A program made the translations under genes and the position numbers. Shown here piece by piece: positions 1,309-63,384 of a stretch of 64,000 bases of DNA. Position 1 is the first letter of the stretch. Each line of letters begins with the position of its first letter. A model generated the notes under the pieces. The model searched no databases and was not told the origin of the DNA. It saw nothing but the letters and a program-made list of their open reading frames with translations. Source of the DNA: an uncultured bacterium (GTDB lineage Bacteria > Armatimonadota > Abditibacteriia > Abditibacteriales > Abditibacteriaceae); contig CAWJLW010000006.1 in NCBI GenBank assembly GCA_963843795.1, forward strand, positions 2,490,375-2,554,374. Reading direction: 5' to 3'.

Positions 1309-1342
1309 AAAAGCGCCTGGCAAGTACTTGCCAGGCGCTTTT
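1309..1342. repeat. Palindromic interspersed element (core CAAGTACTTG) in a 34-bp perfect palindrome at a convergent gene junction
   Basis: aaaagcgcctggcaagtacttgccaggcgctttt reads identically on both strands; acts as a bidirectional terminator hairpin. Confidence 0.9.
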
Positions 1343-1363
1343 GGCCCATCGATTGAAACGGAT

Positions 1364-2050
1364 TTACACGCTGGCGAACGCGCGCACTGCGTTTTCGAGC
1401 GAATCCGCATCGCGCCCGGTCACAATCGCGCCAATCAGAACGGCGCGCGCGCCTGCAGCGCGCAAAGCGAACACATCGTGCGGCACCAATTTCTTCTGCG
1501 AAGGCACGACAATTGGCGATTCTAGCGCGTCGTTCAGCGCTTTATAACGCGCTATATCAAGCGCATTTAACGGCGTGCCATATAAGTCCTGCGTCACGAT
1601 GCTGGCTTCACACAAGTGCATTCCCATCGCTTCGAGCGCGATCATTTCTTCAATCGTGCCGGCGGCGTAAGCCGCCATCATAATGTCCAAATCGCGCTGG
1701 CCCAAAGTCCACGCGGGCGCATCGAGCGGATAAGCATCGAAATAATCGACGCCTACAGCGGCCAATTCTTTGAATTCTTCGGGCGTGGCAAAAGTTTCGC
1801 CGCCAGGAACGATGCCGACTGATGCGCCATGTTCCTGCGCAATTTGCACGATTTGCGTCACGTTTTCGCGTTCTTCACTCCACGAACCGAAATGCGTGCC
1901 CGAAGCGTGATGATGCACGTTGAGATGAATTTTCAAGCCTTGCGCACCGCCGCGCAGAGCCGCGCGCGCGAAATTGATGTTGTTCTGCGGCAGAGAAACT
2001 AAAAGCGTCCAGTCGTGTTCAATGAGACGTTGACGAAGTTGATTCATAAT
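1364..2050 (-). CDS. Hypothetical TIM-barrel-like enzyme (BtpA/NanE-like sugar-phosphate barrel?); probable start at MNQLRQRL
   Basis: The ORF 1364..2200 runs upstream through the palindromic repeat, so the start was trimmed to an internal Met. Gly/Ala-rich barrel-like composition; function uncertain. Confidence 0.35.
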   Translation of the reverse strand: MMNQLRQRLIEHDWTLLVSLPQNNINFARAALRGGAQGLKIHLNVHHHASGTHFGSWSEERENVTQIVQIAQEHGASVGIVPGGETFATPEEFKELAAVGVDYFDAYPLDAPAWTLGQRDLDIMMAAYAAGTIEEMIALEAMGMHLCEASIVTQDLYGTPLNALDIARYKALNDALESPIVVPSQKKLVPHDVFALRAAGARAVLIGAIVTGRDADSLENAVRAFASV

Positions 2051-2070
2051 TTTGAATTGAGATACAAATT

Positions 2071-2096
2071 GTGCGCTGCAAGTACTGGCAGCGCAC
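2071..2096. repeat. Degenerate copy of the palindromic element (gtgcgctgcaagtactggcagcgcac)
   Basis: One mismatch in the core (TTGC to TGGC). Confidence 0.7.
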
Positions 2097-2105
2097 GATT
2101 GCAGC

Positions 2106-3413
2106 TTATTTTTTGTCTTCTTGAATTTCTGCATCCAGCGTGCTTTGTGTGGTGCCTTCGGGCGAAACGGCGGGCGTTTGGTTTGGTGTGGTTTGAGCAT
2201 CGCTGTTGTCGTCGTAGGTAAACGGAAACAGAATGCGCAGATGTGTCATGTTGGCCAGCGCGGTTGCGGCCCACGTCGGCAGCGGTTGATTAGGATACAA
2301 GTATAAATACGGTAACGGCTTCCAATCGGAAATCGACTTATCTTTCTGCGCGAATTTGCCATCGAAATAAAAGCGGCCCGCGACATCTTCCACCCAGTCG
2401 CCGTTCATATCACTGGGATCATAGCGGGGACGCAAAAAGCCAGAGAACAAAGGTGCAGTGCCTTCCCACGACGGGTCGAGCGCGTTGAGCGGGCCAACGA
2501 CCATCCATTGCGTCAGTTCGCGAATGTAATTGGTTTCGGGACTCATCGCGTGGTTCGCGGGCACGATTTGAAAGCTGCCCACGCGGCCCACGGTGCCAGT
2601 CGTTTCGGGCGGCGCGAGGCCAATATCAATCACGCCGTTATGGTTGGCGCGCAAACGTCCGCGCTCGGTGAAATAGCTGCCGACAAAACGTCCCACGCCC
2701 AGAACCGGACGCAAAACAGTGCCAATCGGTTTGGCATCTTCACCACGATATTTAATGGTAATCAGGCCACCGAAACGGTTTTCAAACACAATCCACTGCG
2801 GATATTTGCGTGGACGCTCGACCCGAATTACCCACGAATCGCCCAGTTTCGGAACGTAATCTTTAGGGAGTGGGGCTAAGACGTTGTTGCGGTCGTTGTC
2901 CAGCAAAATCGGATTGCCAACGAACGGCGTGTAAGGGCCGCCGAACAAAACGCGTCCGCCGGGAATGTCGGTAAAAACGCTCGAACCGGGTGAGACTTCG
3001 CTTTGCAACGAAGTTTTGCCTGAAGCCGTGTTGCCAGCGGGCGAAAGCGTCCAGATGACACCGCGATCTTCTTTGGCATTCTGGCCCGATTTAAGGTGAA
3101 TTGCATTAACAGCGGTCGCAACAACCGTTCCAGCAGGGCCAAATTTCGCAGCGGTGTAACCGCGCGGATTGACTTTAATCGTCGGCTGCAAGACGTGGCC
3201 CAGCTCCTGCCAGGTTTTGCCCTCATCGCGTGAGCCTTCGATTAAACCATCTTTCACGTTATGAATACGCACGCGCGCAATTTCGATTTTAGCGACTGTG
3301 TTTTCGCTTTCGACTTGTGGCGATGGGCCGTGTTGATCGGGCAAAGTGGCCTGCGCCGCTAGGGAAAGTGCCAGCGTGCACACGCACGCGGAAAAAATAG
3401 CTGAGTAACGCAT
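2106..3413 (-). CDS. Secreted hypothetical protein (signal peptide MRYSAIFSACVCTLALSLAAQA)
   Basis: Long ORF with an N-terminal signal peptide; no recognisable catalytic motif. Confidence 0.6.
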   Translation of the reverse strand: MRYSAIFSACVCTLALSLAAQATLPDQHGPSPQVESENTVAKIEIARVRIHNVKDGLIEGSRDEGKTWQELGHVLQPTIKVNPRGYTAAKFGPAGTVVATAVNAIHLKSGQNAKEDRGVIWTLSPAGNTASGKTSLQSEVSPGSSVFTDIPGGRVLFGGPYTPFVGNPILLDNDRNNVLAPLPKDYVPKLGDSWVIRVERPRKYPQWIVFENRFGGLITIKYRGEDAKPIGTVLRPVLGVGRFVGSYFTERGRLRANHNGVIDIGLAPPETTGTVGRVGSFQIVPANHAMSPETNYIRELTQWMVVGPLNALDPSWEGTAPLFSGFLRPRYDPSDMNGDWVEDVAGRFYFDGKFAQKDKSISDWKPLPYLYLYPNQPLPTWAATALANMTHLRILFPFTYDDNSDAQTTPNQTPAVSPEGTTQSTLDAEIQEDKK

Positions 3414-3435
3414 AGTAAAAATGAGAAAATGAGAA

Positions 3436-3467
3436 AAAGTGCGCTGCAAGTACTTGCAGCGCACTTT
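3436..3467. repeat. Palindromic element, 32-bp perfect palindrome
   Basis: aaagtgcgctgcaagtacttgcagcgcacttt. Confidence 0.9.
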
Positions 3468-3481
3468 AATTTAGCTTTGAG

Positions 3482-61710: not shown

Positions 61711-61726
61711 CTGCAAGTACTTGCAG
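61711..61726. repeat. Palindromic element core
   Basis: gcgcgctgcaagtacttgcagtgcgc. Confidence 0.85.
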
Positions 61727-61740
61727 TGCGCTTCGTTTAT

Positions 61741-62649
61741 TCAAGATTCTTTATCAGCCTTACCGGTCAGAAATTTTGCGAGGTAGCGCAGGGCCAAAGC
61801 GAGGATGAGAATAAGGGGAAGCCACGGCACGAGCGTGACGACAAACAGAATCAGACCTTTGCAGAAGTCGGCCAGCGCGTTCAATGAATCGTTGAAAGCG
61901 CGCACGATATTGGTGCCAAAGCTCGGTTTCACCGGCGGCACATAATTTTTGATTTCGTTGAGCGTGAGCGTGATTGTGGTTAATGAAGATAAGTTTGCCA
62001 AGACGCGAATGCGGCCTTGTAATTGTTCAATTTCGCCGCGCACGCGGCTCAGTTCGCGCTCGACCTGCAAAATTTCGCTGAGTTTGCCGGTCGCTTTTTT
62101 GAGCAGTTCCTGCAAACGTTTTTCTTCGACTTGCTTGTTGGAGATTCGCGCTTCGACATCGTAAAATTCCGCCGTCACGTCTTGCGAATTGGCTTGAATG
62201 GTGCGCAATTCGCCCAGTCGCGTGGCGCCAGCCATAAACGCTTCGTAATTTTCGACCGGAATGCGCACTTTCCACGTTCCGCTGCGTTGTTCGCCGCTCG
62301 CGCCGCCGATGTTGGTTTCGGCGATGTAACCCGCATTGTCTTTCACCAAACGCGTCAATTTCAACTGTCCGCTGCCCAGACTCTCGACAACTAAATCGAT
62401 CTGAGCGGTGTAAATAATTTTGCGCGGCGTGCTGGAAACCGCTTGCACGACGGCACCGACCGAAGCTGGTTTGCCCGCAACTTTGTCAGCGGACGCAGCC
62501 GCCGAAGATGCGACTCTATCGGATGAGCTTTCAGCACTTATCACCGGAGAATCTCCCGCCTCTCTCATGAATGCATGTTGCTGCGCGCCACAACCAGCCA
62601 AAACACAAACGAAAACCACATTCCACAAGGCGAATCGAAATCGTTTCAT
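61741..62649 (-). CDS. Lipoprotein with coiled coil and C-terminal TM (DUF4349-like)
   Basis: Lipobox VLAGCGAQ; central coiled coil; C-terminal hydrophobic helix. Confidence 0.5.
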   Translation of the reverse strand: MKRFRFALWNVVFVCVLAGCGAQQHAFMREAGDSPVISAESSSDRVASSAAASADKVAGKPASVGAVVQAVSSTPRKIIYTAQIDLVVESLGSGQLKLTRLVKDNAGYIAETNIGGASGEQRSGTWKVRIPVENYEAFMAGATRLGELRTIQANSQDVTAEFYDVEARISNKQVEEKRLQELLKKATGKLSEILQVERELSRVRGEIEQLQGRIRVLANLSSLTTITLTLNEIKNYVPPVKPSFGTNIVRAFNDSLNALADFCKGLILFVVTLVPWLPLILILALALRYLAKFLTGKADKES

Positions 62650-62670
62650 AACGTCTCCTTTTTGCGCCTT

Positions 62671-62682
62671 GCAAGTACTTGC
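62671..62682. repeat. Palindromic element core between the ruvC 3' end and the lipoprotein gene
   Basis: ccttgcaagtacttgcgatg. Confidence 0.85.
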
Positions 62683-62687
62683 GATGT

Positions 62688-63302
62688 TTATTTCAGCTTG
62701 CTTGCTGCGTCCTGACGTAAGACAAAGCAAATCGCGATGGCCAGAGCATCGGCCACGTCAGGAGGATTGGGAGGCGCACTTAATTGTAAGCGAGATTTGA
62801 CCGCTTGTTGCACCGCGCTTTTGGTCGCGTGACCATTGCCCGCGACAACTTGCTTGATTTCATTGGGCGTGAAGGAATGCACGGGCACAATCGAGCGTTG
62901 CGCGGCCAGCATCAAAACACCGCGCGCGTGTGCCATCAACAGCGCGCTGCGCGGATGTGCGTAGGTTGAAAACAAATCTTCGATGACCATTACCTCGGGC
63001 GTGTGTTCGTCCAAAACTTCGGTCAATCCATCGAAAAGAGTTTGCAAGCGCTGCGGCAATTCATCGTCGGCGCGCGCGCGCAACACGCCGCCTTCGACGA
63101 TGTGGGGATGGGGATCATTGGGCACGATTTCGATCACGCCATAACCGGTGCGATGCAAACCCGGATCAACACCCAAGACGCGCCGCGCGAGGGGCAAGCC
63201 CTGCAAACGACGCGCACGCCGCAAGACCGAATCGCTCGCGCTGCGACGCGCCGTGCGCACCTGCGGCAGTTGATTGGAAAAGTTTTGCGTGCGTGGAGGC
63301 AT
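62688..63302 (-). CDS. ruvC: Crossover junction endodeoxyribonuclease RuvC (true start probably internal)
   Basis: LGVDPGLHRTGYGVIE.. RuvC N-terminus and catalytic acidic residues. The ORF probably starts at an alternative codon near 63180. Confidence 0.75.
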   Translation of the reverse strand: MPPRTQNFSNQLPQVRTARRSASDSVLRRARRLQGLPLARRVLGVDPGLHRTGYGVIEIVPNDPHPHIVEGGVLRARADDELPQRLQTLFDGLTEVLDEHTPEVMVIEDLFSTYAHPRSALLMAHARGVLMLAAQRSIVPVHSFTPNEIKQVVAGNGHATKSAVQQAVKSRLQLSAPPNPPDVADALAIAICFVLRQDAASKLK

Positions 63303-63370
63303 GAGCGAAAGTTGGAATGTAAAAGATGGAAGTTGGAATGTAAAAGTTTAGAAATGGCGTTCGGGCGCGG

Positions 63371-63384
63371 TGCAAGTACTTGCA
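63371..63384. repeat. Palindromic element core between htrA and ruvC
   Basis: gtgcaagtacttgcaggg. Confidence 0.85.

Follow-up and report, generated by a model that had tools for sequence, protein, structure and literature searches.

A highly iterated palindrome centred on AGTACT in the chromosomes of Abditibacteriaceae

Introduction

The 64,000-nucleotide stretch analysed here (positions 2,490,375 to 2,554,374 of contig CAWJLW010000006.1, assembly GCA_963843795.1; hereafter the window) is a piece of an Abditibacteriaceae chromosome, phylum Abditibacteriota; the closest named relatives of its MutS come from Abditibacteriaceae/Abditibacteriota. It carries ordinary chromosomal genes, among them pgk, tpiA, RNase PH, Ham1, mutS, dapF, tatC, a mutY-like gene and ruvC, and scattered through and between these genes is a palindromic DNA word centred on AGTACT, the motif with which this work is concerned. 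To our knowledge, hyper-abundant short DNA words are known from just three groups, the Neisseriaceae, the Pasteurellaceae and the cyanobacteria, and the purpose of such words is debated, with uptake specificity, repair and chromosome structure all under discussion. We report here that the AGTACT motif is a genome-wide highly iterated palindrome that is neither a mobile element nor merely a terminator, and we weigh what such a word may do.

Results

Abundance and consensus of the motif

The palindromic 10-mer CAAGTACTTG has 40 exact copies in the 64 kb, spanning 1321 to 63382, where 100 dinucleotide-preserving shuffles lead one to expect 0.02, a count in agreement with the roughly 40 reported in an initial annotation of this DNA. 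Allowing at most one mismatch raises the number to 53 sites against 0.95 expected. The 13 one-mismatch copies consist of four instances of CAGGTACTTG, matching the four or so G-variants of that annotation, and nine others, which it had put at about five. There are 38 copies of the longer form GCAAGTACTTGC and 15 of the complete 16-mer CTGCAAGTACTTGCAG, and an alignment of all 46 AAGTACTT sites yields the consensus cTGCAAGTACTTGCAg, in which the central 12 positions are nearly invariant, positions ±7 and ±8 are strongly biased, and the surroundings are A-rich upstream and T-rich downstream. Density comes to about one copy per 1.5 kb on the window chromosome and to one per 0.8–1.6 kb over five lineages, the over-representation of a short word at around one per kb that characterises DNA uptake sequences; as with the highly iterated palindrome HIP1, a perfect palindrome here lies far above its expected frequency in both genes and spacers. 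The LQVLA, CKYLQ and ASTC pseudo-peptides that recur in open reading frame (ORF) calls are accounted for by the motif, as had been claimed: read straight from the sequence, they are three reading frames of the 16-mer.

Among the matches listed from a genome collection, the 16-mer gave only single chance matches in unrelated taxa, and viral contigs gave six single chance matches with no motif-enriched phage. Searches of the open-access literature and of preprints met the core sequence solely in primers or at unrelated sites, with no description of the motif and nothing relevant on Abditibacterium repeats or competence; within that literature, the view that it belongs to no described repeat family holds.

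The variant CAGGTACTTG is recurrent (36736, 41045, 45961 and 60092; four of the 13 one-mismatch copies among 15 possible variant classes), which may mean that a reader of the word tolerates a purine at that position, or may reflect transition bias. Tandem doublets with 12–13-nt spacing occur in the window (15033/15046 and 6505/6517) and in relatives, whose loci carry L numbers here (L037 4431/4443 and 10941/10954; L038 19074/19087).

Placement of copies and terminator hairpins

Placement was judged on ORF-based gene models, a copy being called ambiguous when it lay within 80 nt of a longest-ORF start. Hairpin potential was judged by folding 44-nt windows, a free energy (dG) of −16 kcal/mol or below being taken as strong against a background of −8.7 ± 4.1 kcal/mol. 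Exact copies are listed first and one-mismatch variants after them; no strand is assigned, dG is in kcal/mol, and ctgA is the contig of a close relative described below.

1318..1333, motif copy TGGCAAGTACTTGCCA at a long-hairpin apex, convergent gap between a DUF4832 and a hypothetical gene, 35 nt past the stop; dG −35.9; A4/T4 runs
3444..3459, motif copy CTGCAAGTACTTGCAG at a hairpin apex, 25 nt past the GH43 stop; dG −23.4
4786..4801, motif copy without extended hairpin, divergent region between GH43 and ORF 4785-6479; dG −8.9
6514..6529, motif copy forming a doublet with the one-mismatch copy at 6505, convergent gap; dG −17.9
7862..7877, motif copy CTGCAAGTACTTGCAG, divergent region between PMT_2 and aldo-keto reductase genes; dG −9.3
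8926..8941, motif copy capping a hairpin with 20-bp arms, convergent gap; best match of the terminator scan; dG −36.1
15030..15045, motif copy, first of a tandem doublet with 13-nt spacing, divergent region between the secretin-like gene and ORF 15027
15043..15058, motif copy, second of the tandem doublet, partner of 15030..15045
16942..16957, motif copy at a hairpin apex, 17 nt past a stop codon; dG −24.9
17349..17364, motif copy 9 nt past a stop codon, upstream of pgk; dG −11.0
19308..19323, motif copy at a hairpin apex, 14 nt past a stop codon; dG −27.1
20150..20165, motif copy 10 nt past a stop codon, upstream of tpiA; dG −11.7
23635..23650, motif copy CGGCAAGTACTTGCCG, 10 nt past the amidase stop
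24931..24946, intragenic motif copy in the Asp/Glu racemase gene, 506 nt from its start
26051..26066, motif copy about 19 nt past the RNase PH stop; kept in ctgA
26456..26471, intragenic motif copy in the Ham1 gene; kept in ctgA
28179..28194, motif copy 8 nt past the stop of ORF 28199-29458; kept in ctgA
29479..29494, motif copy 8 nt past the stop of the paralogous ORF 29499-30767; kept in ctgA
30762..30777, motif copy at the start of ORF 29499-30767; kept in ctgA
31028..31043, motif copy 19 nt past the Band_7 stop; dG −16.6; doublet at the ctgA site
33708..33723, motif copy 44 nt within the longest ORF 33006-33764; kept in ctgA
36548..36563, intragenic motif copy in the NAGPA gene; kept in ctgA
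37212..37227, motif copy at a hairpin apex, convergent gap; dG −21.2; the ctgA site is a doublet bordering a 1.8-kb insertion/deletion
37710..37725, motif copy GTTCAAGTACTTGTAG, 21 nt past the SUKH stop; core kept in ctgA
38231..38246, motif copy at a hairpin apex, immediately past the true mutS stop; stem changes relative to ctgA compensatory
38390..38405, intragenic motif copy in the C-terminal region of mutS, encoding P-Q-V-L-A; kept in ctgA
42710..42725, intragenic motif copy in dapF; copy at the same position in L038
44079..44094, motif copy, divergent region between glyoxalase and FtsX-like genes
46874..46889, intragenic motif copy in the histidine-kinase gene
47216..47231, motif copy, divergent region between the histidine-kinase and SGL genes
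47760..47775, intragenic motif copy in the SGL gene
49337..49352, motif copy at a long-hairpin apex, convergent gap past the prepilin-like gene; dG −35.1
54169..54184, motif copy 72 nt within the longest ORF 51182-54253
55567..55582, motif copy 12 nt past the mutY-like stop
56505..56520, intragenic motif copy in the mutY-like gene
56782..56797, motif copy 62 nt within the longest mutY ORF, probably a divergent intergenic region; dG −16.0
58524..58539, motif copy at a hairpin apex, convergent gap; dG −23.8; A5/T5 runs
61711..61726, motif copy at a hairpin apex, 18 nt past the DUF4349 stop; dG −21.8
62669..62684, motif copy 7 nt past the ruvC stop
63370..63385, motif copy, gap between ruvC and an HtrA-like gene; dG −16.3
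2079..2088, one-mismatch variant CAAGTACTGG
6505..6514, one-mismatch variant CAAGTAATTG, doublet partner of the copy at 6517
10881..10890, one-mismatch variant CAAGTACTCG
13333..13342, one-mismatch variant GAAGTACTTG
16166..16175, one-mismatch variant CATGTACTTG
17768..17777, one-mismatch variant CAAGTACTTT
25281..25290, one-mismatch variant TAAGTACTTG, gap between the racemase and RNase PH genes
36736..36745, variant CAGGTACTTG; exact copy at the orthologous ctgA site, the difference being a point substitution
40332..40341, one-mismatch variant CAAGTACTTC within mutS, encoding E-V-L
41045..41054, variant CAGGTACTTG upstream of mutS; exact copy at the orthologous ctgA site
45961..45970, variant CAGGTACTTG
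51174..51183, one-mismatch variant CAAGTACTTC, gap 51142/51182
60092..60101, variant CAGGTACTTG, gap 60049/60108

Of the 40 exact copies, eight lie clearly within genes and about 22 clearly between them, while about 10, near a longest-ORF start, are ambiguous. An exact copy sits at 30 of 51 gene boundaries and an exact or one-mismatch copy at 34 of 51 (6 of 9 convergent, 7 of 8 divergent and 21 of 34 tandem), so that the statement in the initial annotation that almost every boundary has one was overstated. Strong hairpins of −16 to −36 kcal/mol, with A/T runs of 3–5 alongside, hold about 13 of the 40 copies, and all six motif-bearing convergent gaps contain long hairpins of −18 to −36 kcal/mol with A and T runs, while the remaining two-thirds or so of the copies fold indistinguishably from background positions. 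The self-complementary flanks described earlier are therefore real for a terminator-like subset, and much of the apparent complementarity is the 16-mer consensus itself. The features of an intrinsic terminator (a GC-rich stem-loop and a T run downstream of genes) fit the same number of copies, about 13 of 40, and not the rest; a simple terminator scan returned 42 matches, barely above the 35.6 in shuffles, with the motif hairpins as its strongest. The motif is frequent in terminators but is not defined by them.

Placement of this kind is what one would expect if the motif acted at the RNA level, as a standard stem-loop with a GUAC tetraloop closed by GCAA/UUGC at mRNA 3′ ends, serving as terminator, stabiliser or RNA–protein site much as repetitive extragenic palindromes (REPs) and bacterial interspersed mosaic elements (BIMEs) do. 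Most window copies do lie 7–25 nt past stop codons, the motif hairpins head the terminator scan, the motif-bearing convergent gaps (6 of 6) have long hairpins beside A/T runs, and stems change compensatorily relative to ctgA. Yet for about two-thirds of the window copies folding is no stronger than that of random sequence, a copy stands in 7 of 8 divergent promoter gaps, 12 invariant bases are unnecessary for a terminator, and no Rfam family (tRNA, riboswitch or small RNA) reaches its gathering threshold anywhere in window positions 1–64000. Moreover, the AAAGTACTTT dialect of one relative is just as abundant, and just as enriched at the ends of genes, although its stem is limited to three A–U pairs, and three of the dialect lineages have about half of their copies, or more, inside genes. 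The last two observations weaken the REP/BIME-like RNA hairpin that had been put forward as an alternative, and we regard an RNA-level role as improbable.

Conservation in place in a close relative

The contig ctgA (loci L037 and L054) is syntenic with window positions 25.4–41.5 kb, with MutS 94% and DNA about 73–84% identical, and carries 20 motif copies in 17.8 kb. All 12 core bases are kept at 11 of 15 alignable sites, against 60% identity in the ±20-nt flanks, and at 60% per-site identity the chance of a 12-mer surviving is about 0.002; sites are thus conserved above background between related genomes, as are those of HIP1. Where window and ctgA differ, they do so by a single substitution (CAGGTACTTG at 36736 and 41045), by a 1-nt insertion (near 34124), or by a doublet in one genome standing for a singlet at the orthologous site of the other, the last of which indicates that local duplication or loss is frequent. 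Hairpin stems change compensatorily between the two, for example past mutS. In both these orthologous comparisons and the codon alignments below, copies originate by point mutation and not by insertion, the mode of origin seen in the DNA uptake sequences (DUS) and uptake signal sequences (USS) of other bacteria.

These comparisons bear directly on whether the motif could be a miniature mobile element, either a miniature inverted-repeat transposable element (MITE) or a REP mobilised by a REP-associated tyrosine transposase (RAYT), spread by transposition. High copy number, palindromic shape and intergenic preference would suit such an element, as would a 1.8-kb insertion/deletion in ctgA bounded by copies with an 18-nt direct repeat. 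The conserved unit, however, is only 12–16 bp, with flanks unrelated between copies save for generic GC stems; orthologous copies differ by substitution and never by an inserted unit with a target-site duplication; intragenic copies stand in frame in synonymous codons; neither a transposase nor a Y1-transposase domain was found among about 55 window ORFs scanned; and viral contigs are not enriched. The terminal inverted repeat of a MITE or insertion sequence with target-site duplications, which the initial annotation had named, for a known family, as the finding that would refute the motif's novelty, was likewise rejected: target-site duplications were looked for at orthologous sites and not found, no unit extends beyond 16 bp, and orthologous sites differ by substitution. 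REPs are imperfect palindromes of 20–40 nt with a conserved GTAG head, almost exclusively extragenic and RAYT-mobilised. The motif resembles REPs and BIMEs in being a short intergenic palindrome, often near stop codons, hairpin-forming and, like them, of the kind found in hundreds per genome, but it is a perfect 12–16-bp unit of substitution origin with in-frame genic copies (at least eight in the window), no Y1 transposase among the window ORFs, and one dialect without a hairpin. A mobile origin is largely refuted and hardly credible.

The ctgA segment mentioned above (L037 4430-6240) holds two genes and is absent from the window at 37215; the motif copies bounding it have the 18-nt direct repeat GCAAGTACTTGCCGCGCC in common, and the window junction is a single copy. 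Judged from these junctions, motif copies may serve as sites of illegitimate or short-homology recombination, or the arrangement may be a coincidence given their abundance.

Dialects, codon recruitment and spacing

A metagenome scan with MutS returned only four loci. Among the relatives compared, L038 (MutS 78% identical, 65.7% G+C) has 29 CAAGTACTTG in 22.8 kb with a flank preference for GCAAGTACTTGC, and L041 (MutS 76% identical) has five motif copies in 9.4 kb. L039 (MutS 75% identical) has zero CAAGTACTTG but 21 copies of AAAGTACTTT against 0.02 expected, and L052, a 3.83-Mb circular contig, has TCGAGTACTCGA in 17 exact and six one-mismatch copies against 0.03 expected. Related lineages therefore use distinct but related dialects, as in DUS/USS, and AGTACT is the sole sequence common to CTGCAAGTACTTGCAG, GCAAGTACTTGC, AAAGTACTTT and TCGAGTACTCGA. 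The AAAGTACTTT dialect of L039 has no complementarity past the core, and about half or more of the copies in L038, L039 and L052 lie within genes, which shows that neither the hairpin nor intergenic position is intrinsic to the motif.

Orthologous sites can switch flank in place, as in CGCAAGTACTTGG of L038 versus TCGAAGTACTTTG of L039, and most genic copies are lineage-specific, arising from synonymous or conservative codon changes. Within mutS, the Walker-A residues GKSTF are encoded through AAA AGT ACT TTT only in L039, the AAAGTACTTT lineage; TSTY is encoded by ACA AGT ACT TAC only in L038 and L041, the two CAAGTACTT lineages; and QVL is written CAA GTA CTT G in L038. Such lineage-specific codon choice, making the motif inside a conserved protein, indicates pressure on the DNA sequence itself.

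Spacing between copies is more even than random, with a coefficient of variation (CV) of 0.69 in the window (P = 0.007), 0.60 in L039 (P = 0.004), 0.72 in L038 (P = 0.04) and 0.35 in L052 (P < 0.0002; range 286–1448 nt).

The outgroups L043 and L044 have no AGTACT word. Abditibacterium utsteinense, the cultivated relative (L051, NIGF01000003.1), has another, asymmetric hyper-abundant word, CCACAAAAAATGA, with 15 sites in 20.8 kb against 0.09 expected; it is mainly intergenic and forms five inverted pairs 31–46 nt apart (for example 8666/8700, 11692/11729, 13958/13994 and 19372/19418), an arrangement like the inverted pairs in gaps that are typical of DUS/USS.

An orphan methyltransferase and its missing restriction partner

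Two window features bear on a possible modification of the core.

26991..27761, minus strand, beta-class N6-adenine-type methyltransferase (MTase), orphan here; PF01555 E = 2.8e-51; DPPY and FSGSG motifs
26698..27009, plus strand, 103-aa zinc-ribbon-like ORF where relatives have a restriction endonuclease (REase) gene; convergent with and overlapping the MTase gene; weak zinc-ribbon matches only

The beta-class MTase of the initial annotation is thus indeed encoded in the window, and its closest solved relatives are M.RsrI, MboIIA and CcrM. Its homologues across the Abditibacteriaceae are 65–82% identical and conserved over their full length in every dialect and in motif-less lineages alike; on this ground we rejected the idea that the MTase specifies the dialect. 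A tblastn search found no REase homologue in the window; neither the 145-aa ORF upstream of the MTase gene nor the 103-aa ORF downstream has informative homology, and ctgA has a 104-aa ORF at the site of the latter. In A. utsteinense, L053 and L055, all three without the motif, the MTase gene is followed by a convergent 215–238-aa ORF. The 215-aa ORF of A. utsteinense, a homologue of those in L053 and L055, matches the PADLOC model for a Type II REase (REase_II, E = 1e-10). The putative Type II restriction–modification (R-M) module spans L051 9750-11463, L053 10001-11463 and L055 10001-11607; a helix-turn-helix ORF resembling a controller (C) protein stands upstream of the MTase gene, seen in L051 only. 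Homologues of the REase also occur in Verrucomicrobiota (Opitutaceae), and no names among members of the REase family would indicate its specificity.

Motif-bearing window, ctgA and L052 have no REase gene beside the MTase gene, giving a 3-versus-3 split between motif and REase partner (Fisher P = 0.05, for lineages that are not phylogenetically independent). This suggests that a word containing GTAC or AGTACT cannot proliferate unless the cognate nuclease has been lost, and because of the split we infer that the AGTACT core is probably methylated by the family's conserved adenine MTase, of which the window enzyme is the candidate representative for the AGTACT/GTAC core. It is the depletion of GTAC in the REase-keeping lineages that suggests GTAC or AGTACT as the target: against Markov expectation, A. 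utsteinense has 5 versus 17, L053 3 versus 20 and L055 11 versus 24. In ctgA, 21 of 23 GTAC lie inside the motif, leaving 2 outside versus 12 expected, and L042 has none in 21 kb versus 9.8 expected by the same measure. Depletion is strong in ctgA, L042, L051 and L053, but only mild outside the motif in the window (42 observed versus 67 expected), which gives no support there to the idea that GTAC is restricted in this genome. CTAG is nearly absent family-wide, and both distant outgroups show no GTAC depletion.

The AGTACT core, which contains GTAC, is common to all dialects and coincides with the Type II R-M sites of ScaI (AGTACT) and RsaI (GTAC), and relatives hold a Type II-like module of controller, MTase and REase with a homologous MTase. 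Restriction sites are normally avoided, whereas the motif is about a thousandfold enriched, far longer than Type II sites and present where the REase gene is absent. The link to a modification system raised at the outset is real, with REase absence correlating with the motif, but the MTase itself is present in motif-less lineages too and does not track the dialects.

The same inverse relation (3 of 3 motif-bearing loci without the REase partner, 3 of 3 motif-less loci with it) would follow if the motif were a neutral by-product of biased mutation or repair tied to the orphan MTase, a ratchet turning near-cognate sequence into the palindrome after REase loss. Depletion of non-motif GTAC across the family, the arising of copies by point mutation and the recurrence of CAGGTACTTG in 4 of 13 one-mismatch sites all sit well with that scheme. 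As known from Dcm and Vsr, however, very short patch (VSP) repair acts on a deamination mismatch, and N6-adenine methylation creates none, so that an enzyme of this class leaves nothing for VSP-type repair to act on. A bias at a 4–6-bp MTase site also fails to explain 12–16-bp specificity, and dialects change while the MTase stays the same, including the region between its catalytic and S-adenosylmethionine (AdoMet)-binding motifs. Even spacing and long-term positional conservation point to regional selection or drive and not to random replenishment, an argument made likewise for HIP1 (PMC5861425), and we consider a neutral origin quite improbable.

An internal chromosomal role deserves more weight. 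The evenly spaced, probably methylated palindromes could be bound or nicked by an intracellular system, providing strand discrimination in methyl-directed mismatch repair, as in Elhai's model of HIP1, or anchoring a protein that organises the nucleoid, with a site needed within about 1 kb of every position. Even spacing, strongest in L052, would be expected on this account, as would the positional conservation, which is consistent with site-by-site selection, and a density of about one per kb is the value that Elhai derives for mismatch-repair signals (PMC4390886). The orphan MTase is housekeeping-like in its conservation family-wide (65–82% identity), and replacement of the first Asp of MutL in two relatives could mean that another nickase is used. 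A repair signal would, on the other hand, need only the 4–6-bp MTase site and not 12–16 invariant bases whose flanks vary by lineage; L051 and L053, which are motif-less and nearly free of GTAC/AGTACT, have the MTase and the MutL variant too, and such a system would be siteless there; and no MutH-like gene was seen. On balance we hold an internal role to be unlikely, though far from negligible. The MutL variant, found in L051 886-2817 (minus strand) and L052 5212-7137 (plus strand), reads NQHRAHERILAD or CQHRAHERILAD at the site of the DQHA(X)2E(X)4E motif of endonuclease-type MutL proteins, with the first Asp replaced by N or C and with SCK/ACK and CPHGQP retained; these residues hint that MutL nicking may be altered in the family.

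Other features of the window and its relatives

The annotated 864-aa MutS ORF (mutS 38254-40968, minus strand) is chimeric, with a frameshift near 38902: comparison with the close relative places a +1 insertion near codon 689, and the last 215 residues, 90–100% conserved, are read on in the +1 frame until a stop near 38254, which is why homologues cover just 80% of the ORF. The frameshift is either an assembly error or genuine, and if genuine would mark a mutator lineage. Two tandem paralogues without family matches (28199-29458 and 29499-30767, both minus strand; 419 and 422 aa) are each followed by a motif copy, and the first 20 bases of their 3′ ends beside it are nearly identical (GCGTCATTGCAAGTTA versus GCGTCATTGCAGGTTA); the pair is also in ctgA. 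In L053, five hairpin elements of about 60 nt (…GCAAAAGCGCGCGTTGCC-GAAA-GGCAACGCGCGCTTTT…) stand between small toxin–antitoxin-like genes at 6344-12090, and a 12-nt tandem repeat, ACAAAGACGCCG, runs for 11 units within a gene at 4757-4890.

Discussion

By combining counts, orthologous comparison, codon alignment and folding, our work here leads us to state with confidence that the AGTACT motif is a DNA word read in trans, which selection or drive keeps at about one copy per kb and around which terminator hairpins have been built. Tentatively, and at somewhat less than an even chance, we propose by analogy that it is a tag of the HIP1/DUS class that would favour the uptake and/or recombination of same-species DNA in natural transformation.

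Among known systems, DUS/USS have family-level dialects (PMC3630211), evolve by point mutation in permissive regions (PMC1939737) and lie in terminators in about half of cases (bioRxiv 10.1101/2025.10.24.684340). The motif shares with them a density of about one per kb, a near-invariant 10–12-bp core with weaker flanks, dialects, a point-mutation origin, an association with terminator hairpins, and frame-tolerant genic copies that include DNA-repair genes (here mutS and mutY). The initial annotation's idea of a DUS/USS-like signal in terminator repeats accordingly remains the best-fitting analogy, on the strength of dialects, point-mutation origin, positional conservation, codon recruitment and hairpin apices. 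The window does encode a prepilin-type protein (48479-49300) and a weakly secretin-like one (12807-14927; Pfam E of about 1e-4, under the curated cut-off), and these, neither being specific to competence, are permissive evidence only for uptake.

HIP1 (GCGATCGC), for long a word without an assigned function, is conserved by selection (PMC5861425), holds orphan-MTase sites, gives way in certain lineages to alternate HIPs (PMC4390886), boosts natural transformation in its methylated form (bioRxiv 10.1101/2024.09.10.611283) and has been proposed as an uptake sequence (bioRxiv 10.64898/2026.06.24.733823). Like HIP1, the AGTACT motif is a perfect palindrome at about one per kb, genic as well as intergenic, conserved at orthologous positions and exchanged for alternative palindromes by lineage; an orphan-MTase site in the core, documented for HIP1, may also exist here, where an orphan beta-class MTase accompanies the motif yet also occurs in motif-less lineages. 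In contrast to HIP1, the motif belongs to another phylum, is unrelated in sequence, has a specificity of 12–16 bp versus 8–10, places an AT-rich core in genomes of 53–66% G+C, and in the window lineage is strongly non-coding and systematically a terminator-hairpin apex. The candidate MTase here is an N6-adenine enzyme of the beta class, present with or without the motif, and it is REase loss that tracks the motif.

Several observations weigh against a transformation tag. We know of no ComP/ComN-equivalent receptor, competence phenotype or uptake bias in the Abditibacteriota. DUS/USS are asymmetric, so that a hairpin needs two inverted copies, whereas the AGTACT motif is self-complementary and stands singly at the hairpin tip. 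In the window lineage motif density is at least 20-fold higher in non-coding than in coding DNA (about 49-fold with trimmed gene starts), and the usual position of tandem-gap copies, 7–25 nt past the stop codon, would equally fit a role at RNA 3′ ends. In about 20 kb each, five Abditibacteriota lineages show no AGTACT word: L040 (AP024152.1, 7.4 Mb), L042, L051, L053 and L055. Finally, spacing as regular as that of L052 (CV 0.35) is also predicted by an internal chromosomal function, and uptake sequences (DUES) are not especially evenly spaced (PMC1939737).

How a transformation tag of this kind might operate can be outlined as follows. A sequence-specific dimeric protein, with its gene outside the window, would read 12–16 bp of double-stranded DNA centred on AGTACT, and selection or recombination-coupled molecular drive would hold about one copy per 0.8–1.5 kb. 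New copies would come by point mutation at weakly constrained sites, that is, past stop codons, in promoter gaps and in permissive codons (QVL, KYL, xST). Its self-complementarity would suit the word to a hairpin tip, and many intrinsic-terminator stems of the window lineage would have been built around it. A shift in reader specificity would then lead to a genome-wide shift of flanks and so to the dialects CTGCAAGTACTTGCAG, GCAAGTACTTGC, AAAGTACTTT and TCGAGTACTCGA. We further suggest, as a possibility that is itself doubtful and again drawn by analogy, that the Abditibacteriaceae have a system of species-specific uptake/recombination tags, its signal a self-complementary word of 12–16 bp with an AGTACT core methylated by an MTase left over from a lost R-M system; the word would change rapidly from lineage to lineage, by palindromic dialects and, in the restriction-proficient A. 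utsteinense, by exchange for the unrelated, asymmetric CCACAAAAAATGA.

Whatever its function, the motif is an independent case in a deep-branching and barely studied phylum and offers a fresh comparative system, with dialects, word-less lineages, an apparent trade-off of the motif with a restriction enzyme, and a cultivated relative, A. utsteinense, that has a different word. It is usable as a lineage marker for binning Abditibacteriaceae contigs and may serve as a design element for genetic tools in the Abditibacteriota. If the word marks self-DNA for transformation, such tagging would have evolved repeatedly and can be palindromic and methylation-linked. The family-wide tag system, if true, would be the first outside the Proteobacteria besides the proposed cyanobacterial HIP1, and would tie together R-M loss, self-DNA recognition and terminator architecture.

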